Positions 4,420 to 57,367 of a stretch of 64,000 bases of DNA are shown one piece after another. This DNA is from an uncultured Elusimicrobia bacterium (lineage in GTDB: Bacteria; Elusimicrobiota; Elusimicrobia; Elusimicrobiales; UBA9959). A program made the position numbers and the translations under genes. A model generated the notes under the pieces. That model worked only from the letters and a program-made list of their open reading frames with translations, was not told where the DNA came from and searched no databases. The stretch spans positions 95,718 to 159,717 of the forward strand of contig CAIRNJ010000091.1 in the NCBI GenBank assembly GCA_903879915.1, in the 5' to 3' direction. Position 1 is the stretch's first letter. Each line of letters opens with the position of its first letter.

Positions 4420-5928
4420 ATGGAAAATAAATTCGAAGAACTTCGTAAACGCTGCGAGGAGATGGCCGCCTTGGGGTCGGCCGGAGCGCTGCTGGGCTGG
4501 GACCAGAACGTCTATATGCCGCCCAAGGGCGCGCAAGCCCGTGGCAGAACGCTGGCGGTGATAAGCGAGCTGGCCCATCACAAGCTTACCTGCAGGGAGA
4601 CCGGGACGCTCATAGCGGACCTTTACGACTGGGCCCAGGCCAAGGGATACGACAGTTTCGAGGCGGCTTTCCTGCGCGCCATAAAGCGCGACTACGACCA
4701 GGAGGTCAAGATCCCGGCCGAACTGGTAAAAGAGCTCTCCCTGGCCACCACGGCCTCTTTCGAAGCCTGGCATAAGGCCAGGAAGGCTTCCGACTTCGCC
4801 ATGTTCGCCCCGCACCTGGAGAAGGTGGCGGAGCTGAACCTGCGCAAGGCGGAAGCGCTGGGCTACGATAAGTCGCCTTACGACGCGCTGCTGGACCTTT
4901 ACGACGCCGGCATGCGCCGCGAGAAGCTGGACGGCATTTTCGCCGAGCTGGCCGCCGGCCTGACGCCCGTGATAAAGGCCATAAACGAAAGGGCGGACAA
5001 AGTTTCAAGCGCCCCGTTCAAGGGCGATTTCGCCCCCGCCGCGCAGCTCGGCCTCGCCCTGGAGATAGCCAGGGCGCTGGGCTATGACCTCGAGGCCGGC
5101 CGCCAGGACCTGGCCGCGCACCCGTTCTCCAGCGGCATACTTTCGCCCGACGACGTGCGCATAACCACGCGCACGCAGGCCGACTGGCTCCCGGCCTGCG
5201 TCTACGCCTCCATCCACGAGACCGGCCACGCCCTCTACGAGCAGGGCTTCCCCGGTGAATTCGCGTTCACCCCGCTGGCCTCGGCCGCCTCCCTGGGCGT
5301 GCACGAATCGCAGTCGCGCTTCTGGGAGAACCTGATAGGCCGCAGCCGGCCTTTCGCTGCCTGGGCGCTGCCGCTGTACCGCAAGCATTTCCCCGGCAAG
5401 TTCGACAGCCTCACGCCCGAGGACATCTACCGCGCGGCCAACCGGTCAGAGGCCTCGCTGATACGCGTGGAAGCGGATGAAGTCACCTACAACCTGCATA
5501 TAGCGCTGCGCTACGAGATAGAAACGCAGCTGCTGGACCGCAGCCTGAAGATAAAGGACGCGCCGGAGCTCTGGAACGCGAAGATGAAGGAGTATTTCGG
5601 CATAACTCCCTCCAACGACGCCGAAGGCATACTGCAGGACGTGCACTGGGGCTACGGCATGATAGGCTATTTCCCGTCCTATACCATCGGCAACCTGATC
5701 TCTGCCCAGCTTTACGCCGCTATCCGCAAGGACCTGCCCGGCATGGACGCCATGATAGAGAAGGGGGAGTTCGCGCCGCTGCTGGCCTGGCTCAGGCGGA
5801 AGGTGCACGCGCAGGGGCGGAAGTACCAGCCCGAAGAGCTGCTGGACCGCGCTGCGGGGCAGAAGCTCAGCGTGAAGCCTTTCGTGGAGTACATAAGAAC
5901 GAAGTACTCCGCGCTGTACGGCTTTTGA
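4420..5928 (+). CDS. M32 family carboxypeptidase (Taq-type metallocarboxypeptidase)
   Basis: HETGHALYEQG (HExxH), HESQSRFWEN, IRVEADEVTYNLHI and DVHWGYG are all M32 signatures. A GGAGGG Shine-Dalgarno sits just upstream of the ATG. Confidence 0.88.
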   Translation: MENKFEELRKRCEEMAALGSAGALLGWDQNVYMPPKGAQARGRTLAVISELAHHKLTCRETGTLIADLYDWAQAKGYDSFEAAFLRAIKRDYDQEVKIPAELVKELSLATTASFEAWHKARKASDFAMFAPHLEKVAELNLRKAEALGYDKSPYDALLDLYDAGMRREKLDGIFAELAAGLTPVIKAINERADKVSSAPFKGDFAPAAQLGLALEIARALGYDLEAGRQDLAAHPFSSGILSPDDVRITTRTQADWLPACVYASIHETGHALYEQGFPGEFAFTPLASAASLGVHESQSRFWENLIGRSRPFAAWALPLYRKHFPGKFDSLTPEDIYRAANRSEASLIRVEADEVTYNLHIALRYEIETQLLDRSLKIKDAPELWNAKMKEYFGITPSNDAEGILQDVHWGYGMIGYFPSYTIGNLISAQLYAAIRKDLPGMDAMIEKGEFAPLLAWLRRKVHAQGRKYQPEELLDRAAGQKLSVKPFVEYIRTKYSALYGF

Positions 5929-8755: not shown

Positions 8756-9107
8756 GGGGGCGAATAGGTTCGACGTTGACTTGTTCTGTCAGATCAGCAG
8801 GCCATGGTTGACCAGGCCATGTAAAACAGGGTCAAAAACATAAAAGCCAACTCCAACGAGATGGCCTGGGCGCACGCTTAAGTGTGCCTCGCTTGTAGCC
8901 TACCCGCCTGAGCGGGCTATAAAGCGTTAAATTCAGGCTGCTGTCGTCAGGGGCGCGCTTCGTCCCGTGCCGGCTTAAGACAATACGGAGCTTGGCCGGG
9001 AATTGTCGTCCTGAACTAATCCCGGCCGAGACACACTCAGGGCTAAGCCTGTAGCGGTTCTGACAAGCTGTTAGCGGACCCGGGTGCGAATCCCGGCGCC
9101 TCCACCA
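8756..9107 (+). ncRNA. ssrA: tmRNA (transfer-messenger RNA)
   Basis: The 5' GGGGGCG pairs with the 3' CGCCTCC-ACCA, including the G3:U alanine identity pair. A T-arm GGACCCGGGTGCGAATCCCGG is present. The internal tag ORF GCC AAC TCC AAC GAG ATG GCC TGG GCG CAC GCT TAA encodes ANSNEMAWAHA. Confidence 0.9.
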
Positions 9108-27111: not shown

Positions 27112-27993
27112 TTATTTCACCAGCCGGAAGCCTACGTAGAAGCTGCCCTGCTTCATGTAAATATAGCTGCGGAAGTCGGTGCGCAGGTATTCGTTGTCGC
27201 TGCTGTAGAAGGAATTACCGCGGATGACATTGTCGCCGTTGGCGGCGCCTTTAACCGCGCTGCCGTCGGCGGGAGCGCCGGCGTACGATTCCTTATATAT
27301 GTCCTGCGTTATCTGCCAGACGTTGCCGGCCATGTCGCACAGGCCCTGCTTGGTGTTGCCCGCGGGCTTGGAACAGACGGGCCCGGTGCCGTTGTTGCCG
27401 CCGCCTACGCCGTTCTCTACGCCGTCGTATACCGCCCTGGCGTGGGTAACGGGCTCGTTGCCCCAGGGATATTTATTGCTCTTGCCTTCGCTCCGGGCGG
27501 CGTATTCCCATTCGGCCTCGGTGGGGAGCCTCGCGCCGGCGAACTTCGCGTAGTCGTTCATTTGCTTCCCGTTCAGGCAGTTCATCGGGTATTTCTGGTC
27601 GTTGGGAGTATGCCAGTTGCAGTTGAAGCTGTAGTAAGTGACCGGGGGCGTCGTGCACTTCCCTGCGTTAACGCACTGCGCGTATTGCTCCACGGTTACC
27701 ACTGTTTTGGCCATTTTAAAGGTATTAATACTTACCTCGTGTACCGGCCTTGTGTTATTAGACCCCGGGGCGCTTTTCTCTGCCCCCATCTGGTACTTGC
27801 CCCCGTGAATGGTCACCCATTTTATCTGCGCCGCGCCGGCGGCGTAAGCCGCCACATCCGGGTTAAATATATCTCCGTCCGCGTAGGTGGACGCCTCGAT
27901 GTTCCAGGCTTTCACCGCCAGGTCCCCGAATTCAGCGGCAACTGCGTTGCCGGCCAAACCTAACATCGCTATCAGCATCATCGCTTTTTTCAT
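27112..27993 (-). CDS. Secreted FGE-sulfatase (SUMF1/EgtB-like) domain protein, paralog 1
   Basis: CDMAGNVWQITQD, NVIRGNSF and a C-terminal GFRLVK follow the FGE-sulfatase domain pattern. The signal peptide is MKKAMMLIAMLGLAGNAVAAE. Confidence 0.75.
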   Translation of the reverse strand: MKKAMMLIAMLGLAGNAVAAEFGDLAVKAWNIEASTYADGDIFNPDVAAYAAGAAQIKWVTIHGGKYQMGAEKSAPGSNNTRPVHEVSINTFKMAKTVVTVEQYAQCVNAGKCTTPPVTYYSFNCNWHTPNDQKYPMNCLNGKQMNDYAKFAGARLPTEAEWEYAARSEGKSNKYPWGNEPVTHARAVYDGVENGVGGGNNGTGPVCSKPAGNTKQGLCDMAGNVWQITQDIYKESYAGAPADGSAVKGAANGDNVIRGNSFYSSDNEYLRTDFRSYIYMKQGSFYVGFRLVK

Positions 27994-28173
27994 TTGTGGT
28001 TTCTCCTTGGCTATTCTGACCTCTGGGTTTTATTGCCGCCTTCAAAACCTCACACTATAAGTTTACCGAGTTTTCCGTCGTGTTTCCTGAGGCAGAAGAA
28101 CCAAGGCCGCGCGCTTATTTGACCCAGGAGAGCCGGCTTACAAATACTGCTTTTAATTAAGCCGCCGGCTTAA
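27994..28173 (-). promoter_or_regulatory. Type-1 upstream cassette, copy E (FGE-domain gene 1)
   Basis: P0 at 28157..28173, core at 28123..28140 (two mismatches), CCTGAGG at 28086..28092 and AGTTTACC at 28060..28067. Linkers are 16/30/18 nt and the leader is 66 nt. Confidence 0.75.
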
Positions 28174-28177
28174 CCGA

Positions 28178-28231
28178 AATAGAGTGACACACAACTTAAT
28201 TGCTGTCAATTAAGTTGTGTGTCACCCTATT
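28178..28231 (-). terminator. Long palindromic hairpin, family copy 1
   Basis: Perfect 19-bp arms GTGACACACAACTTAATTG (28184..28202) and CAATTAAGTTGTGTGTCAC (28207..28225) with loop CTGT. It lies downstream of the 28289 gene stop and has a T-rich flank on the minus strand. Confidence 0.6.
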
Positions 28232-28288
28232 TGCAGGCAGGCTTTAATATACGGCCGGGGGAACCGTATTTTGATCCCTGTCGTTCCC

Positions 28289-29131
28289 TCAGGCAGTATG
28301 CTGCACGCCATCCAGGCCGGTCCAGCTTAAACCGCCGTTCGCGTTCAGCGTGAAGTCTTTTGCGTAGCGGCTGATCAGCAGGCCGTTGAGGAAGAGGTCG
28401 TGATAGCTGTCGAGCGCGGCCGCATCTCCAGTCCTGGCGGCCACGCTGAACTTGAGCACGTTCGAACCTACCCGGCTGGTGGCGCCGCCGGTGTTCCTGT
28501 AGAGGGTGTTGAACGTGTCCAGCCAGGCGGTTGTTCCGGTGAACGCCGACACTTGATATTCCTTCACACCGGAACCGATCCGGTCCGTTTTTAGGCCCTC
28601 ATTCCTGTAGAGGTAGCCGTAAGTGTCCTTCCAGACCACCTGCCCGGTGAAGGCGTTTACATCCCGGCTCTCTGCGCAAGAGCCTATCCGCGAAGAGTTC
28701 CTGTAAAGGTATTTGTAATGGTCCGTCCAGACCACGTCCCCGGTGAAGGCAGCTATGCCGTATTCCTTTACCTCGCGGCCCAGCCTGTCCGCGTTCCTGT
28801 AAAGGTTGCCGGCCCTGTCGGTCCAGGCGGCGTCGTTGGTGCAGCCGGTCTTGAAGGCCACCGCTCCGCGGCCGAGCAGGGTATGCCCGTTATAGATGTC
28901 GCCTTTGTTGTCTATGAATACCGGCGGCTTATAGCAGGCGGACTGTGGCGGAGCCGGCTGCGGTACGTCCTGCTGGTGCGGCGTCTGGAAGGAATGCCCG
29001 ATATCGGCGGCGCCGCACTTTAAGAGCCCCGCGAAGCTCGCCGAGGGGCCATCAAACGCCGCCCCCGGAGCCGCGGCGTAAGCGCCCGTAGCTGCCGCGA
29101 GCGCGGCAATGATAATCAATATTTTTTTCAT
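28289..29131 (-). CDS. Secreted repeat protein (about five ~38-aa repeats, LYRN...G..V..F.V..FTG...W.D)
   Basis: Signal peptide MKKILIIIAALAAATGAYAA. The repeated units NLYRNADRLGREVKEYGIAAFTGDVVWTD, YLYRNSSRIGSCAESRDVNAFTGQVVWKD and others suggest a beta-propeller-like architecture. Confidence 0.6.
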   Translation of the reverse strand: MKKILIIIAALAAATGAYAAAPGAAFDGPSASFAGLLKCGAADIGHSFQTPHQQDVPQPAPPQSACYKPPVFIDNKGDIYNGHTLLGRGAVAFKTGCTNDAAWTDRAGNLYRNADRLGREVKEYGIAAFTGDVVWTDHYKYLYRNSSRIGSCAESRDVNAFTGQVVWKDTYGYLYRNEGLKTDRIGSGVKEYQVSAFTGTTAWLDTFNTLYRNTGGATSRVGSNVLKFSVAARTGDAAALDSYHDLFLNGLLISRYAKDFTLNANGGLSWTGLDGVQHTA

Positions 29132-29313
29132 TTTGTACCCCTTATCCGGAAAGCATACGGCGAACTTTGCCGCTTGATCAAAGTTTACAGTATCTCCGGA
29201 GTGTTCCGATTGAGGCGAAGGGTAAGCGCGGCGAGGTTATTCGGACTATAACGGGTGAGACGCCACGGAGGGCGTTTTAGGAACAATTATTGTTGCCAAG
29301 GCGCGGGCGCCCG

Positions 29314-30150
29314 TCAGAAAGACTTAACTTTGCGCATGCGCAGCTTTATCAGGTAGAAGCCGGTATTCTGGCCGGCCGAATGCGTGGCGTAGGCGTTGGC
29401 GCCGTCCATGGCCTGCGCCAGCTGCAGCCGGAAGTTGCTCATGGCGCCCTCTTCGGCGCGCACCAGCTCCAGCCGCTCGAAGAATTCCGGCCCGCCGGCT
29501 TTTTCCAGGTAGCCGTTGATGGTTTCCAGCTGGGCGCCCATGCCCTCGAGCCGGCCGGGGTAGGTGAAAAATTTGCCCTGGTGGCGGCACTTGTATTTGC
29601 CAGCCGGGGTTTTAAGGAGCAGGCCGGCTTTCTTCAGCGACTCAAGCGCCTTCGCGACGGCTTTGGGCTCCAGCTCGAGTTTCCCGGCCAGTTCCTCCGG
29701 GGACCAGGTGCCCCCGTCGCTGCACAGCGCTTCGGCGCACCAGTAGACGGCCTCGCTGGCGGCCATAGCGGTGAATTCCTCCGGGCTTAAATGCACCGAG
29801 GAATGGGCCTTCATCCAGGTCATGGCGCCGGGCCCGGCGCCGGCCGCGGACTGGCCGGAAAAAAGCGGGGCTAGTATGTAATCCGCGCACCTGCCGCCGC
29901 CCAGCGAGTCGCGCAGGTAGCTCATAAGCAGCTCCCTGGCCTCGGCCTGCGTCGGCAGCAGCCGCAGGGCCAGCATGATCCGCTCCAGCCACTCGGGCTT
30001 GGGGACGGACGCTCCCTTCTCGATGCGCATGTAGTGGACGAAGGTGAAAGCGAAGTGCTTTCTGCCGCCGTTGCGGTGGTAGAACTTGTAGGCGGTGTCG
30101 AAGCCCGCGGCCGACCTGGCCTTTATAAGGTTTTCGTGGAAACTCAGCAT
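29314..30150 (-). CDS. Putative HTH/winged-helix transcription regulator, paralog R1 (TIGR02147/DUF4423-like)
   Basis: The N-terminus LIKARSAAGFDTAYKFYHRNGGRKHFAFTFVHYMRIEKG and the central PEELAGKLELEPKAVAKALESLKKAGLL are collinear with 41850..42710, 42723..43604 and 50896..51765. Confidence 0.55.
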   Translation of the reverse strand: MLSFHENLIKARSAAGFDTAYKFYHRNGGRKHFAFTFVHYMRIEKGASVPKPEWLERIMLALRLLPTQAEARELLMSYLRDSLGGGRCADYILAPLFSGQSAAGAGPGAMTWMKAHSSVHLSPEEFTAMAASEAVYWCAEALCSDGGTWSPEELAGKLELEPKAVAKALESLKKAGLLLKTPAGKYKCRHQGKFFTYPGRLEGMGAQLETINGYLEKAGGPEFFERLELVRAEEGAMSNFRLQLAQAMDGANAYATHSAGQNTGFYLIKLRMRKVKSF

Positions 30151-30233
30151 TTGCTCTCCTTGACCATAGGCTAGTTATTATAGCGGTAGGGCGCGGTTTT
30201 AGCAACTTTCAGGCGGGAAATAAGGTGGGGAAA

Positions 30234-30283
30234 TAAAGTGACACAGAACTTAATTGTTGCCAATTAAGTTCTGTGTCACTTTA
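30234..30283 (-). terminator. Long palindromic hairpin, family copy 2
   Basis: Arms GTGACACAGAACTTAATTG (30238..30256) and CAATTAAGTTCTGTGTCAC (30261..30279) with loop TTGC. It matches copy 1 except for one position, which is changed in both arms. It lies right after the S8 stop and ~85 nt upstream of the R1 start. Confidence 0.6.
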
Positions 30284-30284
30284 A

Positions 30285-31436
30285 TTATAACAGCTCCATC
30301 GCTTTCTTCAGGTCAAGACGGCCGGTGCCGAAGACTTCATCCCGGCCGGGGTTGCCCAGGTCCACAGTGGATGCCAGCAGCAGGTCGATGAGTTCCTGCG
30401 CGGTCAGGTCAGGTTTTACCGACAGCATCAGCGCCGCCGCGCCGGAAACTATGGCGGCTGACAGCGAAGTGCCGTTGCTGGTTATGTAGCCGCCGCCTTT
30501 GTCGGTGGTATACAGCGCGGAAGACGGCGCGGAAAGGTCCACATACGCCCCGGTGTTGTACGCCGGCGGATGCCAGTCCAGTTCGTTGGTAGCCCCCGCC
30601 ACCAGCATATGCGGGTCGTCGGGGAGGTTGAGATACTCTCCCTTATTGCCGGCCGATACTACCAGCACCCCGCCCTTGTTATAAAGATATTCCGCCGCTT
30701 CCTGCACTGCCAGGTTGCCGGCGGCGTTGCTCATGCTCAGGTTAACCACCTTTATGCCCCGGTCGGCGCCCCACTTAATGCATTTCGCGCTGTTGGCGTG
30801 GTCGGTGGCGCCGTCGGCCTGGTTGCTCACCTTGCCGGGGATCATCGTGACCGCCCAGTTAACCCCTGAGGCGCCGGTGCCGGTATGGCCGCCCTGCGCG
30901 CCTATCAGCCCGGCTATGCGCGTGCCGTGGCCGTTGCCGGTGGGCTCAGTATTAGCGCTGCCGTCCACGAAGTTCATGCCCGGGCCCACGTTGCCGCGCA
31001 GGTCCGGGTGCCCGGACTCTATGCCGGTGTCGCAGACCAGCACCCGCACGCTGCGGCTGCCTTTGCTTTTCGCCCAGAAAAGCGGGGCCTGTATCTTAGA
31101 AAGGAACCAGGTCTTATCCGGAGCGTCCGCTTCTACAGCGGCTTTGGGCGGATAAGCGAGTTCCTGCGGCTGTACCGCGCTCACACTATTGAGCGCCTCC
31201 AGTCTGGCGGCAAGGTCCTTTCCGCCCCTTGAGGTTTTTCCTTTCGCCAGGTAAACGTCGCCAACCACGGGGTCTACCGTAATGCCGGGCAGGTCCCGTT
31301 CCAGCGCCGCAGTGAACGCTTCTATGCCGCTGCCTTTCTGGAGCTTGAACAGTACCGAAGCTTCTCCTTCTTCCGCCGCCGCGCCCGTTGAAAGCGCCAG
31401 CAGCGCCGCCGCCGCAAGTTTTAGTTGTGTTTTCAT
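30285..31436 (-). CDS. Secreted subtilisin-like serine peptidase (S8)
   Basis: The Asp-His-Ser triad contexts are VLVCDTGIESGHPDL, GHGTRIAGLIGA and GTSLSAAIVSGAAAL. A signal peptide is present. Confidence 0.88.
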   Translation of the reverse strand: MKTQLKLAAAALLALSTGAAAEEGEASVLFKLQKGSGIEAFTAALERDLPGITVDPVVGDVYLAKGKTSRGGKDLAARLEALNSVSAVQPQELAYPPKAAVEADAPDKTWFLSKIQAPLFWAKSKGSRSVRVLVCDTGIESGHPDLRGNVGPGMNFVDGSANTEPTGNGHGTRIAGLIGAQGGHTGTGASGVNWAVTMIPGKVSNQADGATDHANSAKCIKWGADRGIKVVNLSMSNAAGNLAVQEAAEYLYNKGGVLVVSAGNKGEYLNLPDDPHMLVAGATNELDWHPPAYNTGAYVDLSAPSSALYTTDKGGGYITSNGTSLSAAIVSGAAALMLSVKPDLTAQELIDLLLASTVDLGNPGRDEVFGTGRLDLKKAMELL

Positions 31437-32550: not shown

Positions 32551-33666
32551 CTACTGAATGTCCAACATCTCTACGCTGCTGGTCTCCGGGCCTACCGAGC
32601 CCTGGCTGCGGCGCGCGAACTTAACGGTAAGTACGTACTTGCCGGGGTTCGGGTTGTCGGCGAGCCTTATGCTGTACAGCGAGGCCACGTCGTAAGTGCC
32701 GTGCACGGTTATCTGCTGCAGCCCGTTGGGGGACACGTTCCCGCCGGCGGGAAGGACCATAGCCTCTACCGTGAGGTCTATCTGCGAGCCCTTGTAGTAG
32801 GCAGCTTTAGCGTCGGAGAAGGTCAGATAGAACGACCTGCCGATATAGCCGGAGGAGTCCAGCGCGATCTCTTTATACACCGGAGCAGGCTGAGGCGGTA
32901 CGGGGTTGTAGGGCTCGGGGGTAGGCGGATAATACGGCTCGGGCTGGGGCGGCATAGGAGGCTGCGGATGCCACGGCGCAGGCTGCGGATGCCATGGGCC
33001 GGGGCCGTCATGATAACCAGGGCCGTCGTGGTTGCCGGGACCGGGCTGCGGATGCCACGGCTCAGGCTGCGGGCCGGGATGGTTGTCGTGACCGGGGCCG
33101 TCGTGGTTGCCGGGGCCGGGCTGAGGTCCGGGCTGGGGATGCCACGGCTCAGGCTGCGGGCCGGGATGATTATCATGGCCGGGGCCGTCGTGATTGCCGG
33201 GGCCGGGCTGGGGCTGCGGATGCCAAGGTCCAGGCTGGGGACCGGGCTGAGGGCCGGGGCCGTTGTGATGACCGGGGCCGTCGTGGTTGCCGGGGCCGTC
33301 GTGGTTGCCGGGGCCGGGTTCCGGGTGCCAGGGCTGGGGTTCCGGCACAGGCGGAGGGTTAAAGCCGCCGTGATCGCCGCCGGGCTGCGGGTTAAAACCG
33401 CCGTGGTCGCCGCCGGGCTGCTGGCCGCCGCCGTGGTCTCCGCCGCCGTGGTTGCCGCCAGGCTGCTGGCCGCCGCCGTGGTCGCCGAAGCCGGGGCCGG
33501 GCTGGTTGCCGCCGCCGTGGCCGCCGCCGTGGTCACCCGGTCCTTTCAAAGTATCAACGGTTTTCAGCACTTCTCCTACGCTCTTATCGAAGTCTGCTTC
33601 CGCCGCGAACGCCCTCCCGGAAAGCGAGAGCAGCATTGCTGCCGCAACTAAAGATTTCGTTTTCAT
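32551..33666 (-). CDS. Secreted His/Gly/Pro-rich low-complexity protein with a structured C-terminal domain
   Basis: Signal peptide MKTKSLVAAAMLLSLSGRAFAAE. About 220 aa consist of GDHGGG, GPGNHDGPG and PWHPQPGP motifs, followed by a ~110-aa beta-rich C-terminus. Confidence 0.7.
   Translation of the reverse strand: MKTKSLVAAAMLLSLSGRAFAAEADFDKSVGEVLKTVDTLKGPGDHGGGHGGGNQPGPGFGDHGGGQQPGGNHGGGDHGGGQQPGGDHGGFNPQPGGDHGGFNPPPVPEPQPWHPEPGPGNHDGPGNHDGPGHHNGPGPQPGPQPGPWHPQPQPGPGNHDGPGHDNHPGPQPEPWHPQPGPQPGPGNHDGPGHDNHPGPQPEPWHPQPGPGNHDGPGYHDGPGPWHPQPAPWHPQPPMPPQPEPYYPPTPEPYNPVPPQPAPVYKEIALDSSGYIGRSFYLTFSDAKAAYYKGSQIDLTVEAMVLPAGGNVSPNGLQQITVHGTYDVASLYSIRLADNPNPGKYVLTVKFARRSQGSVGPETSSVEMLDIQ
32883..33537 (-). 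repeat. Coding low-complexity/tandem repeat region (GGNCCNGG-rich)
   Basis: Repeated DNA units such as ggccggggccgtcgtggttgcc encode GPGNHDGPG/PWHPQPGP. Confidence 0.7.
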
Positions 33667-50895: not shown

Positions 50896-51765
50896 TCAGT
50901 CCTTGGGGAGCAGCTGGAAGATGCCGGCGTCGACCATATAGATGGCTGACGCCTGCCTGTTCTCTCCGGAGTCGGCGTAGATGGCGGCCAGCTCCACGAA
51001 TTTATCCATGTGCTGGCGGTAGATATCCAGGTTGGCCCTCGACATACGGATGGTTATCCGTCTCGTATCCACCCGGCCGGCTTTCTTCATCCACTTCTCC
51101 AGGTGTCCCAGCAACGCGGCCTTCACCGGGGCGGTAGCCGGCGTCGCGGGCAGCAGCTCCACTACTTTCGCCGCGTATTCGGAGCGCGTTTTATCATTGG
51201 TAAACTCAGCTATGCCCTGGGCCGCGAACGTTCTGAGGGTTTTCCTTATCAGGTCGGGTTTGAAGCCCGTGGCGTTGGATAATTCGCGCACCGTTACCCA
51301 GCCCGTGGTGTTGAACAGATAATACTGGCAGAGGAACGACACCATGTCGCGGGCGCATACTTTCCATTGTTCCAGCGTAAGATTGGCGGTGCGCTGCGCG
51401 AGCGCTTTTTGTGTCGCGGCTTCCGCCAGCTCCCTGCTGGGGAGGTCCTCGTCCGCGGCGCCGGCTGCCGCCGGGGCGGACAGGGAATCGAGCAGTTCGT
51501 CCGAGCCCGACAGCGCTTTGAAATAGGCCCGGATCAGCTCCTGGCCCCGGGGGGAATCCTGTTCCACGCCCAGCGCGGCTATTATCGCTTTCAGGCGCCA
51601 GCTCCTGGGCAATTTCTTCCCGTGCTCCGTGTTCCAGTAGGTCATCAGGCTGAAGCCCAGGCTTTTTTTCCCGCCTACGCTGTTATAGAACTGGTGCGCG
51701 CTGGAGAAGCCCAGCTCTTTCCTTATCCTGGCCAGTACGCTGCCGAAAGCTTTTGAATTATTCAT
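50896..51765 (-). CDS. Putative HTH/winged-helix transcription regulator, paralog R4
   Basis: MNNSKAFGSVLARIRKELGFSSAHQFYNSVGG... and WVTVRELSNATGFKPDLIRKTLRTFAAQGI are present. Its start codon is 21 nt from palindrome P0 of divergent cassette L. Confidence 0.6.
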   Translation of the reverse strand: MNNSKAFGSVLARIRKELGFSSAHQFYNSVGGKKSLGFSLMTYWNTEHGKKLPRSWRLKAIIAALGVEQDSPRGQELIRAYFKALSGSDELLDSLSAPAAAGAADEDLPSRELAEAATQKALAQRTANLTLEQWKVCARDMVSFLCQYYLFNTTGWVTVRELSNATGFKPDLIRKTLRTFAAQGIAEFTNDKTRSEYAAKVVELLPATPATAPVKAALLGHLEKWMKKAGRVDTRRITIRMSRANLDIYRQHMDKFVELAAIYADSGENRQASAIYMVDAGIFQLLPKD

Positions 51766-51785: not shown

Positions 51786-51969
51786 TTAAACCACGGGTTT
51801 AGGAAAATGCGTTATCCCTAAGCCGCCGCTCCTGGGCCGTAATACGGGGCGGCGCTGGTTCCGCGGCCTCATGTGGCCGGTCCGCCAACGGAGTAAACTA
51901 TAGTAAGAAGTTTTGAAAGCCGCGCGGCCGGACAGCCGGAGCGGAACATAAATAAGGAGAGCAACTAAC
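51786..51969 (+). promoter_or_regulatory. Type-1 upstream cassette, copy L (the only plus-strand copy)
   Basis: P0 at 51786..51802 (TTAAACC-ACG-GGTTTAG), core TAAGCCGCCGCTCCTGGG at 51819..51836, CCTCATG at 51867..51873 and AGTAAACT at 51892..51899. Linkers are 16/30/18 nt and the leader is 70 nt. Confidence 0.75.
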
Positions 51970-57183: not shown

Positions 57184-57262
57184 CAGCTGCTGAGCCCGCG
57201 TTGCGGGGTATCCGATAAGTAACCAGGTTCTTTTGTAAGAAGCCTTAATAAATATAAAGCCG

Positions 57263-57310
57263 GGGACATAATATCGTGAGGTCTAAACGGTATTATGTCC
57301 CTGACTTTTT
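57263..57310 (+). terminator. Rho-independent terminator
   Basis: GGGACATAATA (57263..57273) pairs with TATTATGTCCC (57291..57301) around a 17-nt loop, followed by TGACTTTTT. Confidence 0.65.
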
Positions 57311-57367
57311 ATGGCGCGTTGTTTTGAATACACAAAGACAAGTTAACGCTACATAATGGAAAACATA

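Follow-up and report, generated by a model that had tools for sequence, protein, structure and literature searches.

Two palindromes bracketing a two-gene segment belong to a dispersed repeat family of Elusimicrobiota

The locus and its two palindromes

The DNA analysed here, a stretch of 64,000 nucleotides from an uncultured Elusimicrobia bacterium (the window), contains two perfect palindromes with 19-nt arms, recognised by repeat and fold evidence and assigned to neither strand. Copy 1 occupies 28177..28232, with core arms at 28184-28202 and 28207-28225 separated by the loop CTGT, and 7-nt A/T-rich flanks AAATAGA and CCTATTT; its core, 28184-28225, reads GTGACACACAACTTAATTG-CTGT-CAATTAAGTTGTGTGTCAC. 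Copy 2 occupies 30231..30286, with core arms at 30238-30256 and 30261-30279, the loop TTGC and the flanks AAATAAA and TTTAATT; its core, 30238-30279, reads GTGACACAGAACTTAATTG-TTGC-CAATTAAGTTCTGTGTCAC. Both had been reported in a preliminary description as perfect palindromes whose arms differ only at position 9 (C in copy 1, G in copy 2), with the partner base also changed, and the sequence confirms this. When the flanks are included, the inverted repeats reach 26-nt arms with 96% complementarity (28177-28232 and 30231-30286). Four half-site matches with at most 3 mismatches were found in the window, against 0.01 expected from shuffles. Folding of the sense-strand RNA gave −42.7 kcal/mol for copy 1 (z = −9.5) and −35.7 kcal/mol for copy 2 (z = −10.0). 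Both palindromes and the orientation of their loops are identical in ten assemblies made independently from this strain, so they are not assembly artefacts, and no loop flip-flop was seen within this strain.

The three genes next to the palindromes lie on the minus strand. The first is an S8 subtilase gene (30285..31436; Pfam Peptidase_S8, E = 1.7e-31), whose orthologues are 80-93% identical; copy 2 sits at its 3′ end as a cap. Between the two copies only two genes are found, as had been described. The first gene of this module is R1 (29314..30150), a putative winged-helix, DUF4423-like regulator with weak DUF4423 and ArsR-like matches, whose orthologues form a graded series across Elusimicrobia. 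The second is an open reading frame for a LYRN-repeat secreted protein (28289..29131), for which no Pfam family was matched, and copy 1 lies downstream of it. Each palindrome is preceded by a minus-strand stop codon, that of the LYRN gene (28289) 63 nt from copy 1, and that of the S8 gene (30285) 5 nt from copy 2, the flank of copy 2 overlapping the S8 stop codon by 2 nt. A distance of 87 nt separates copy 2 from the R1 ATG, close to the figure of about 85 given earlier, and a promoter-like site on the minus strand, TTGCTA-17-TATAAT (30177..30205; a consensus match only), lies in between. Beside copy 2, an extra iteration of the outer 10-mer AAATAAGGTG (reverse complement CACCTTATTT) is present at 30218..30227, with no strand assigned; family-wide, such iterations adjoin 26 of 120 arms, against a background expectation of 1.4%. 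The outer edge of copy 1 abuts element P (28034..28179, minus strand), a repeated element of ~130-145 nt placed before an FGE-sulfatase gene, which marks the right-hand boundary of an inserted or variable segment.

Comparison with related genomes, proposed earlier to see whether the region from 28.2 to 30.3 kb is present or absent as a unit, showed this 2.1-kb segment to be an indel. From the S8 stop to element P, the window holds exactly a palindrome, R1, the LYRN gene and a palindrome, where only 83-104 nt are found in loci L061 and L062. The pair formed by R1 and a LYRN-like gene is conserved in locus L065, in a different context and without palindromes. The same comparison shows what stands at the orthologous gene ends. 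In L061, L062 and L064, a terminator made of a GC-rich hairpin and a T-run stands after the S8 orthologue (identities 93%, 80% and 80%), and in L065 the LYRN-like orthologue is followed by an ordinary terminator, GACCGCCGGG..CCCGGCGGTTTTTTTT. The window palindromes fill the slots of their relatives' ordinary GC-rich terminators.

A dispersed family of perfect palindromes

The earlier description took the two palindromes for a pair peculiar to this locus, and their C/G change for a compensatory event within it. Neither view holds, as searches for the repeat across genomes gave many loci falling into two widespread subfamilies. The window palindromes are two copies of a dispersed, Elusimicrobiota-clade-specific family of ~56-bp palindromic repeats. 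In the full unit, 26-nt arms, made of AAWTAAR followed by the 19-nt core GTGACACA[C/G]AACTTAATTG, enclose a sequence-free loop of 0-5 nt, and the foot of the hairpin reads R-GTGAC. Subfamily A has C at arm position 9 and subfamily B has G; copy 1 belongs to A and copy 2 to B. Other, less common subfamilies have as many as four compensated changes, and solo half-sites exist.

The half-site was found at 47 loci, of which ~40 come from MAGs representing 19 Elusimicrobiota species, and also in ~30 metagenome contigs, so that the repeat is known, almost letter for letter, from at least 20 Elusimicrobiota species. MAG loci carrying it range from 51.5 to 66.6% GC, and the proteins they share are 58-95% identical. 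An independent metagenome scan, in which the middle 9 nt of both arms were left free, yielded 35 loci, 29 of which were of type A or B with zero variation at the free positions. Conservation ends sharply 7 nt beyond the 19-nt arms, and base frequencies are uniform past the 26-nt arms. The element is AT-rich (~30-37% GC) inside genomes of 52-67% GC. Exact copies number 1 to 10 per MAG, with 2 in the 64-kb window and 2 in a 528-kb contig. An Rfam search returned nothing at gathering thresholds, and a permissive scan of 27950-30400 only meaningless plant-miRNA matches (E = 0.1-0.3). A phage or plasmid origin was rejected, with zero matches in viral contigs, a phage collection and a plasmid collection. 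We found no paper giving the sequence, or such a repeat in Elusimicrobia.

Selection on structure had been proposed from the two window copies, and the family as a whole agrees with it: dyad symmetry is actively kept. Over the 26 arm pairs, 93.3% of alignment cells are paired, and 13 of the 26 pairs covary, with double-sided changes in 79 cells, a score reached by 0 of 500 shuffles, while slid controls gave 13-31 cells. At position 9, C/C was found 44 times, G/G 16 times and a mixed pair once. Among other compensated variants are GTGACAGTGACC, with 4 changes, GTGGCAC/GTGCCAC and GTGACACCC/GGGTGTCAC. Loops behave differently from arms: they differ among copies within one genome, and are flipped between sister genomes (L043 compared with L050, and L033 with PAL_c). 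A test for selection at the RNA level, based on the strand asymmetry of G.U and A.C pairs, gave no signal (15 versus 19, and 3 versus 2 within arms), and a bias towards pyrimidine-rich loops, seen on contig plus strands in a first sample, was absent from the metagenome sample. At the DNA level, the repeat may be recombinogenic, template switching or conversion from arm to arm flipping the loop and keeping the arms identical. The apparent compensatory double change in the window would then arise because of such arm-to-arm exchange, combined with the existence of two long-standing subfamilies.

Copies are placed non-randomly relative to genes. Fifty-four of 60 face a gene 3′ end, at a median distance of 18.5 nt (33 copies at 30 nt or less), and in at least 6 copies a stop codon lies inside the flank of the element. 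Convergent regions are enriched among copies (16/47 versus 30/236, Fisher p = 0.0008). The exceptions are 2 divergent regions, along with several junctions between closely spaced genes. The element is also found within ~30 nt upstream of a start codon, in L013 and L035 (5′-nucleotidase orthologues), L089, L080 and others. Of 29 copies in tandem gene pairs, only 18 are closer to the stop than to the next start (p = 0.26, with crude gene calls). The neighbouring genes amount to 66 unrelated singletons. A generic REP-like repeat, scattered with no link to gene ends, had been named as the outcome that would undermine the initial interpretation; the copies are indeed many, with unrelated neighbours, yet they keep to gene ends.

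Function of the repeat and competing explanations

Judged from sequence, the likeliest role of the repeat is to terminate or stabilise transcripts, with no specific tie to the regulator next to it. We consider it reasonably probable that it is a REP-like hairpin, acting as a bidirectional terminator and/or as a 3′ mRNA stabiliser, recombinogenic, and not an operator of R1. Transcribed from either strand, the element would fold into a hairpin of high stability with a U-rich tract behind it, the 3′ flank YTTAWTT being conserved on both strands. Such a hairpin could work as a bidirectional intrinsic terminator and/or as a REP-like hairpin stabilising mRNA at 3′ ends or between cistrons. We infer the termination role from position and fold only. 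The position of copies facing stops fits the terminator-like role put forward earlier, as does the presence of ordinary terminators at both gene ends in relatives, and the fold energies, −36 to −43 kcal/mol, compare with ~−26 for these ordinary terminators. Mutual exclusion with canonical terminators showed a trend in the expected direction (2/55 versus 18/168), in a test that was underpowered and used an insensitive detector. A strong terminator just upstream of start codons is awkward for this reading.

With Rho-independent terminators the repeat shares its layout, an A-rich tract, a hairpin and then a U-rich tract, and its location 0-30 nt after stops, and it replaces ordinary ones at orthologous ends. 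However, its stem is about twice as long, with an A/T-rich top and only ~37% GC, and its primary sequence is conserved across unrelated genes and species, which is normally not so in terminators. Arms that are invariant across species while loops are free are more than a plain terminator requires, and suggest an additional, sequence-specific factor. Paired uptake sequences (DUS in Neisseria, USS in Pasteurellaceae) likewise combine a clade-wide sequence, inverted pairs downstream of genes and a terminator role, but they are spaced at ~1 per kb, are chiefly single and are found within genes too, whereas the Elusimicrobiota repeat occurs at ~1 per 100 kb or less and nearly always as an inverted pair.

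As part of the favoured reading, the repeat would also mark the edges of variable gene segments, where recombination between copies may place it; examples are the R1-LYRN module and an array of three palindromes and two ORFs in genome AM1076. A further step, which we find rather doubtful, is that the main role of the element is that of a recombination or attachment site delimiting mobile cassettes, similar to attC or pdif, with terminator activity secondary; the R1-LYRN segment would then be a cassette inserted at a resident palindrome. The palindrome-bounded segment of the window, set against the short S8-P gap of L061 and L062, and the palindrome-free pair in L065 are in line with this. So is the array in AM1076, in which a palindrome, a 201-aa ORF (36% GC), a palindrome, a 169-aa ORF (45% GC) and a palindrome follow each other next to a 52%-GC block, the first two palindromes having identical 42-nt cores; its sister ELA399 has one palindrome there. 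Accessory-type genes are also found bracketed, namely AAA_14+DUF4143 ATPases (L037, L030) and a YhcG nuclease (L039). Against it, the majority of copies are solitary, and clustering below 2 kb is not significant (3 loci, versus ~1.3 expected by estimate). No recombinase was found beside the AM1076 array, whose neighbours are glycan-biosynthesis and dap genes, nor in any retrieved family locus. The far flank of the array is also non-homologous between AM1076 and ELA399, which indicates a synteny break rather than a clean insertion. The GC content of the window module is genome-like (61% versus 60%), and the two window copies differ in subfamily yet are each symmetric, which a crossover inside the palindrome would not yield. 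Co-mobility of cassette and palindrome was rejected, as no palindrome lies near a homologue of the 201-aa ORF, 51% identical to it, that was found in another genome. Integron attC sites, CALINs and pdif share with the repeat hairpin or dyad sites at ORF 3′ ends that bracket small modules, and the one array with three sites and two single-ORF, low-GC cassettes resembles an integron array. Unlike attC, the repeat has perfectly paired arms, no GTTRRRY core and no extrahelical bases; unlike integron arrays, it has no adjacent integrase or recombinase. The Xer sites dif and pdif have 11-bp arms and a 6-bp spacer, compared with arms of 19-26 bp and a variable loop here.

The terminator or stabiliser reading already borrows from REP elements. 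That the repeat is of the REP/REPIN type in the stricter sense, copied by a hairpin-specific HUH (RAYT-like) transposase whose specificity fixes the arm sequence, appears decidedly unlikely. REP and REPIN of Enterobacteria and Pseudomonas are also short extragenic palindromes that form hairpins preserved by compensated changes; they are concentrated downstream of genes and in the intervals of convergent gene pairs, can terminate transcription or stabilise upstream mRNA, and serve as points of recombination and rearrangement. Discrete "master" subfamilies with nearly no intermediates, turnover of position between orthologous operons (L014 versus L027) and partial tandem re-iterations at the base of the hairpin add to the likeness. 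Yet REP stems are imperfect and ~15 nt long, and their copies number tens to hundreds per genome, where ours have perfect arms and few exact copies; the 5′ GTAG head is absent; and within-genome loops differ, unlike those of freshly copied REPINs. No recurrent small ORF family lies beside copies, and a scan for the RAYT/Y1 signature in 1.5 million translated residues from the retrieved loci found no RAYT gene, its one match, in a 66-aa ORF, being spurious. The same master sequence, moreover, is kept over species of differing GC that share only 58-70% protein identity, a breadth which to our knowledge exceeds that of described REP families.

A MITE-like origin, in which two terminal inverted repeats of an insertion sequence lie back to back and are moved in trans by a DDE transposase, is very unlikely. 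Small, sharply bounded, dispersed inverted repeats near genes, with possible effects on transcription, are known from the Correia elements of Neisseria, and the sharp boundaries of the present repeat, its AT-richness, its unrelated neighbours and its isolated half-sites would fit. But no target-site duplication was seen (inspection by eye revealed no direct repeats in the flanks of 39 copies), there is no internal region, the "ends" being just 0-5 nt apart, and ~100 loci contain no parent insertion sequence, full-length element or transposase with such ends. The lack of matches in plasmid, phage and viral collections also speaks against it, and hypervariable loops with invariant arms are the opposite of neutral decay after transposition.

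Finally, the proposal that R1 uses the palindromes as operators, or that a dimeric transcription factor binds them as a shared duplex site and so controls the bracketed genes, is scarcely credible and was rejected: the dyad is perfect, copy 2 does sit 5′ of the R1 start, and the R1 orthologue of L101 has a family member 12 nt past its stop, but the other four of the five R1 orthologue loci with retrievable DNA (L058, L059, L060 and L065) have no copy, even with up to 5 mismatches allowed, and homologues of R1 or LYRN are absent from all of the ~40 other loci, the copies neighbouring unrelated genes instead. Half-site spacing is not fixed (−1 to +5 nt), and this variation in the loop argues against a fixed dimeric operator; together with the lack of co-occurrence, it also tells against the shared protein-binding site suggested at first. 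Mixed C/G sites are almost absent though both types coexist in one genome, which fits base pairing and not a tolerant protein contact. A better operator candidate is a different dyad conserved beside R1, TGGTAACA-N5-TGTTACCA.

Significance for Elusimicrobiota

Elusimicrobiota are almost entirely uncultured, and we know of nothing reported on their transcript ends or small repeats. The repeat offers a sequence tag for gene ends and synteny breakpoints across the clade and, going by its predicted hairpin, a candidate portable bidirectional terminator. For annotation, a palindrome of this family should not be read as a local operator. Long perfect palindromes are usually unstable in bacterial chromosomes, and here is a natural one that is maintained in them.

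It is possible, if on balance unlikely, that the element is the recognition hairpin of a clade-conserved candidate enzyme, which would be a recombinase specific for hairpins or else an HUH nuclease. Such an enzyme would keep the arms invariant in species with only ~60% identical proteins, flip and re-symmetrise the palindrome, and insert or exchange small cassettes at gene ends; the outcome would be a cassette system resembling integrons or REPINs, with a new type of site and no known partner. Arms that do not vary between species, next to loops that vary freely, imply a sequence-specific partner or a copying mechanism, and finding such a partner could reveal a new system of repeat propagation or cassette exchange.

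Two palindromes and their repeat family

Both palindromes were found to read as first described: positions 28184-28225 are GTGACACACAACTTAATTG-CTGT-CAATTAAGTTGTGTGTCAC (copy 1, type A, with C at arm position 9), and positions 30238-30279 are GTGACACAGAACTTAATTG-TTGC-CAATTAAGTTCTGTGTCAC (copy 2, type B, with G). They are the longest inverted repeats of the 64 kb, their arms reaching 26 nt when the A/T-rich flanks are counted, and half-sites match the window 4 times, for 0.01 expected. Sense-strand RNAs fold at −42.7 and −35.7 kcal/mol (z ∼ −10), and both copies, with unchanged loops, are present in 10 assemblies made independently for the same strain. The observation was confirmed, and lies well outside chance expectation.

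The pair is not the local twin proposed in the preliminary description, its copies being members of a large Elusimicrobiota family. When GTGACACANAACTTAATTG was scanned against bacterial and archaeal genomes, one for each species, 47 loci were obtained. Of these, ∼40 belong to 19 Elusimicrobiota MAGs, whose sources include groundwater, lakes and sediments, and each MAG has 1 to 10 exact copies. In six matches outside Elusimicrobiota the free position was occupied by A or T and the partner arm was lacking; these are chance matches. An independent scan of metagenome contigs, which fixed 5 bases per arm end and left free the middle 9 of each arm and a loop of 0-6 nt, yielded 35 loci, one of them a chance match. 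Of the 35, 29 were of type A (…ACACACAAC…) or B (…ACACAGAAC…), with zero deviations at the free positions. Subfamilies that were rarer, yet symmetric internally, were GTGACAGTGACCTTAATTG (4 changes, each compensated), GTGACAGGATACTGAATTG and the imperfect GTGACAGTGAACTTAATTG. Compensated variants were also found in loci L068 (GTGGCAC/GTGCCAC) and L101 (GTGACACCC/GGGTGTCAC) of other genomes. After duplicate removal, the set comprised 60 palindromes and 8 solo half-sites. Several genomes, the window's included, carry types A and B together; the C/G double change, initially taken for a local compensatory mutation pair, is therefore a difference between two old, widespread subfamilies.

A third long hairpin of the window (57252-57312, 26-nt arms, 85% complementarity, ATATAAAGCCGGGGACATAATATCGT…ACGGTATTATGTCCCTGACTTTTTAT) lies 69 nt after an ORF stop, with A-rich and T-rich flanks designed like those of the family. 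It may be a remote member, as its core GACATAATA resembles degenerate relatives in L061 (GGTGACATAATACTTAATTC) and L039. An Omnitrophota MAG (L029, 1189-1268) has inverted half-sites GTGACACATAACTTAATTG and GGGACACATAACTTATTTA, 42 nt apart and with T at the variable position, which may represent a related element beyond Elusimicrobiota.

Pairing between the arms

Beyond the 19-nt arm, 7 further bases are conserved (AAWTAAR and, on the opposite side, YTTAWTT), after which base frequencies abruptly become uniform; no target-site duplication was apparent in the flanks inspected. The loop is mostly 4 nt long, ranging from a one-base overlap to 5 nt, and its sequence is essentially free. An outer 10-mer, CACYTWAWTY, is iterated beside 26 of 120 arms (1.4% expected), including once beside copy 2, at 30218-30227. 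Many of these iterations are clean tandem duplications and take in the last 5-7 nt of the arm, such as (GTCACTTTATTTCCT)x3 in L056.

An alignment of 62 sequences had 93.3% paired cells, and two-sided changes in 13 of the 26 pairs (79 cells). This level of covariation was reached in none of 500 shuffles, and sliding the partner by 1 to 3 columns gave 13 to 31 cells. One-sided changes were almost absent within the 19-nt arms. At arm position 9, 44 sequences have C:G and 16 have G:C, with a single mismatched sequence. Since one arm was held constant in finding part of the sample, the evidence free of this bias is that of the metagenome scan, the flanks and position 9. The variable loop, the near absence of mixed C/G sites although both types share a genome, and the compensated subfamilies point to base pairing from arm to arm. 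The same three features do not fit a dimeric protein site of fixed geometry.

Gene ends and the R1-LYRN module

Genes were called with a simple codon-usage caller trained on the collected loci. A gene 3′ end is faced by 54 of the 60 palindromes, at a median of 18.5 nt from stop codon to arm (30 nt or less for 33 copies), and the stop codon of the upstream ORF falls inside the element's own flank in at least 6 copies. Tandem, convergent and divergent regions held 29, 16 and 2 palindromes, compared to 176, 30 and 30 other intergenic regions of the same loci, an enrichment in convergent regions (odds ratio 3.5, p = 0.0008). The pattern has exceptions: within tandem pairs only 18 of 29 copies were nearer to the stop than to the next start, with a caller that demonstrably missed some genes, and a few copies lay within ∼30 nt of a start codon. 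Among the latter are the elements immediately upstream of 5′-nucleotidase orthologues (64% identical) in two genomes, one element being of type B and its counterpart of type A. The flanking proteins are mutually unrelated (66 singletons in an all-against-all BLAST).

In the window, the S8 protease gene (30285-31436, minus strand) stops 5 nt from copy 2, which with its flanks (30231-30286) overlaps the stop codon by 2 bases. The putative winged-helix regulator gene R1 (29314-30150, minus) has its ATG 87 nt from copy 2, and the LYRN-repeat secreted protein gene (28289-29131, minus) stops 63 nt from copy 1; the gene of an FGE-sulfatase-domain protein follows (27112-27993, minus). Orthologues of the S8 gene in L061, L062 and L064 (93%, 80% and 80% identity) are followed by an ordinary GC-rich hairpin and T-run, and the palindrome is absent. 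The window palindromes sit in terminator slots.

P, a repeated upstream element of ∼130-145 nt, begins 83-104 nt past the S8 stop in L061 and L062, and at 28179, immediately outside copy 1, in the window. The 2.1 kb that separate the S8 stop from P in the window are exactly palindrome, R1, LYRN and palindrome. Compared with related genomes, the bracketed module is thus an indel, which the suspicion that it varies as a unit had anticipated. The segment from S8 to FGE-sulfatase holds different genes in each relative; in L062 an IS5-type transposase gene (DUF772, 4492-5841) is inserted between trypsin-like and S8 protease genes, which indicates that the neighbourhood is prone to rearrangement. 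Contigs of the same strain (L002, L005, L008, L003, L006) end at window ∼29131 and ∼30160-30180, several independent assemblies breaking around the start codon of LYRN or at 14-31 nt 5′ of the R1 ATG. These breaks may be due to repeated leader sequences or to population variation around the module.

A link of the palindromes with R1 itself did not hold. R1 orthologue loci L058, L059 and L060 had no element at up to 5 mismatches, and in L065 an R1+LYRN-like pair (R1 88% identical) stands in a different neighbourhood, followed by GACCGCCGGGTTCTCCCGGCGGTTTTTTTT and no palindrome. In L101 a family member lies just 3′ of the R1 stop, between convergent genes. No R1 or LYRN homologue was found at any palindrome locus besides the window. 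A better candidate for an R1 operator or promoter than the 42-bp palindromes is a dyad just downstream of R1, TGGTAACA-N5-TGTTACCAAAACGCCC, with TATAGT-like bases ∼25 nt later. Its window form is TTGGCAACAATAATTGTTCC (29280-29299), and it is kept in three close R1 orthologue loci (L058 ∼4250, L059 ∼6230, L065 ∼6865 and ∼7930) despite differing downstream genes.

P is found at no fewer than 9 places of the window, before genes for signal-peptide proteins (minus sense, starts 22715, 25140, 28173, 38440, 41655, 45425, 46447 and 49287; plus sense, 51805-51913), and in L061 (3996-4124), L062 (7244-7389, 8715-8802, 10858-10988) and L064 (328-448, 7951-8069). Its consensus is GTTAAGCCGGCGGCTTAA…TAAGCCGCCGCTCCTGGG…CTGGTTC..GGCCTCAGG…GGTAAACTTATA..TGTGAGGTTT, then AAGGAGA and ATGAAAA; it has no match in Rfam, and could be a regulon promoter or leader. 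R1 has paralogues at 41868-42695 (+), 42738-43568 (+) and 50932-51750 (−), with 21-26% identity. The first and third divergently adjoin P elements, as in L064 (17-295, −), an arrangement which suggests that R1-family winged-helix proteins may regulate P-type promoters. The window also holds a tmRNA gene (8756-9107, tag peptide ANSNEMAWAHA) and the gene of a 371-aa secreted protein (32551-33666, −), made mostly of Gly/His/Pro/Gln low-complexity repeats (GGDHGG, PQPGPGNHDGPG), for which no Pfam family was found.

Turnover and nature of the repeat

Sister genomes ELA399 and AM1076 (∼89-91% nucleotide identity) have palindromes in common at two orthologous sites, and at both sites intact arms surround a centre that is inverted with respect to the neighbouring genes. 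Element positions turn over between more distant genomes: in an orthologous nadC operon, one genome has the element after the last gene, and the other only a solo half-site upstream of the first.

A dedicated cassette system bounded by palindromes is a possibility. At one of the two sites shared with ELA399, AM1076 has an array of palindrome, 201-aa ORF (36% GC), palindrome, 169-aa ORF (45% GC) and palindrome, next to a 52%-GC block syntenic with ELA399, which has a single palindrome at the array boundary; far flanks are non-homologous between the two. The array was pieced from L032 and L056, adjoining 8-kb chunks of one contig, with the 201-aa ORF crossing the join; its first two copies have identical 42-nt cores. 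A YhcG-type nuclease gene and AAA_14+DUF4143 ATPase genes are likewise bracketed by copies or half-sites. However, no recombinase borders the AM1076 array, the 201-aa ORF has a homologue (51% identical) in another genome with no palindrome nearby, the R1+LYRN module is of genome-typical GC, and copy clustering is not statistically compelling. The ELA399 ATPase genes (L037 1123-2590, L030 4220-5420) have same-orientation solo half-sites at their flanks, and two of these three half-sites have a motif in common, GGCAATCGTAAATAGTAGCAAT, 20-70 nt upstream; a full palindrome follows 1 nt after the end of a third paralogue.

Position, A- and U-rich flanking tracts and the replacement of ordinary terminators point to a probable 3′-end hairpin, which would serve bidirectional termination and/or protection of the upstream mRNA; enterobacterial REP elements are hairpins that terminate and/or protect upstream mRNA. 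The initial ideas of a putative terminator and of probable structural selection are supported by position and covariation. Loop inversion between the sister genomes shows that, as DNA, the arms interact with each other. A known mechanism at E. coli mutational hotspots, template-switch correction of quasi-palindromes, would hold the arms identical with no need for each change to be selected. Neither the hairpin role nor template switching accounts for the constancy of primary sequence across species: 2 × 26 nt are the same, with randomised loops, among species with 58-95% identity of shared proteins and at loci of 52-67% GC. Such constant arms around randomised loops imply either a partner specific for the sequence or continued copying or conversion out of master copies. 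No RAYT signature or recurrent neighbouring ORF was found in the loci collected around palindromes, and searches for a parent IS in ∼100 collected loci, for matches in phage, viral and plasmid collections, for an Rfam family and for a literature record gave nothing.

The description that suits the element best is a new, low-copy and unusually conserved form of the REP-like hairpin repeats at gene ends. A more interesting possibility is that a hitherto unrecognised system for recombination or copying uses it as its site.
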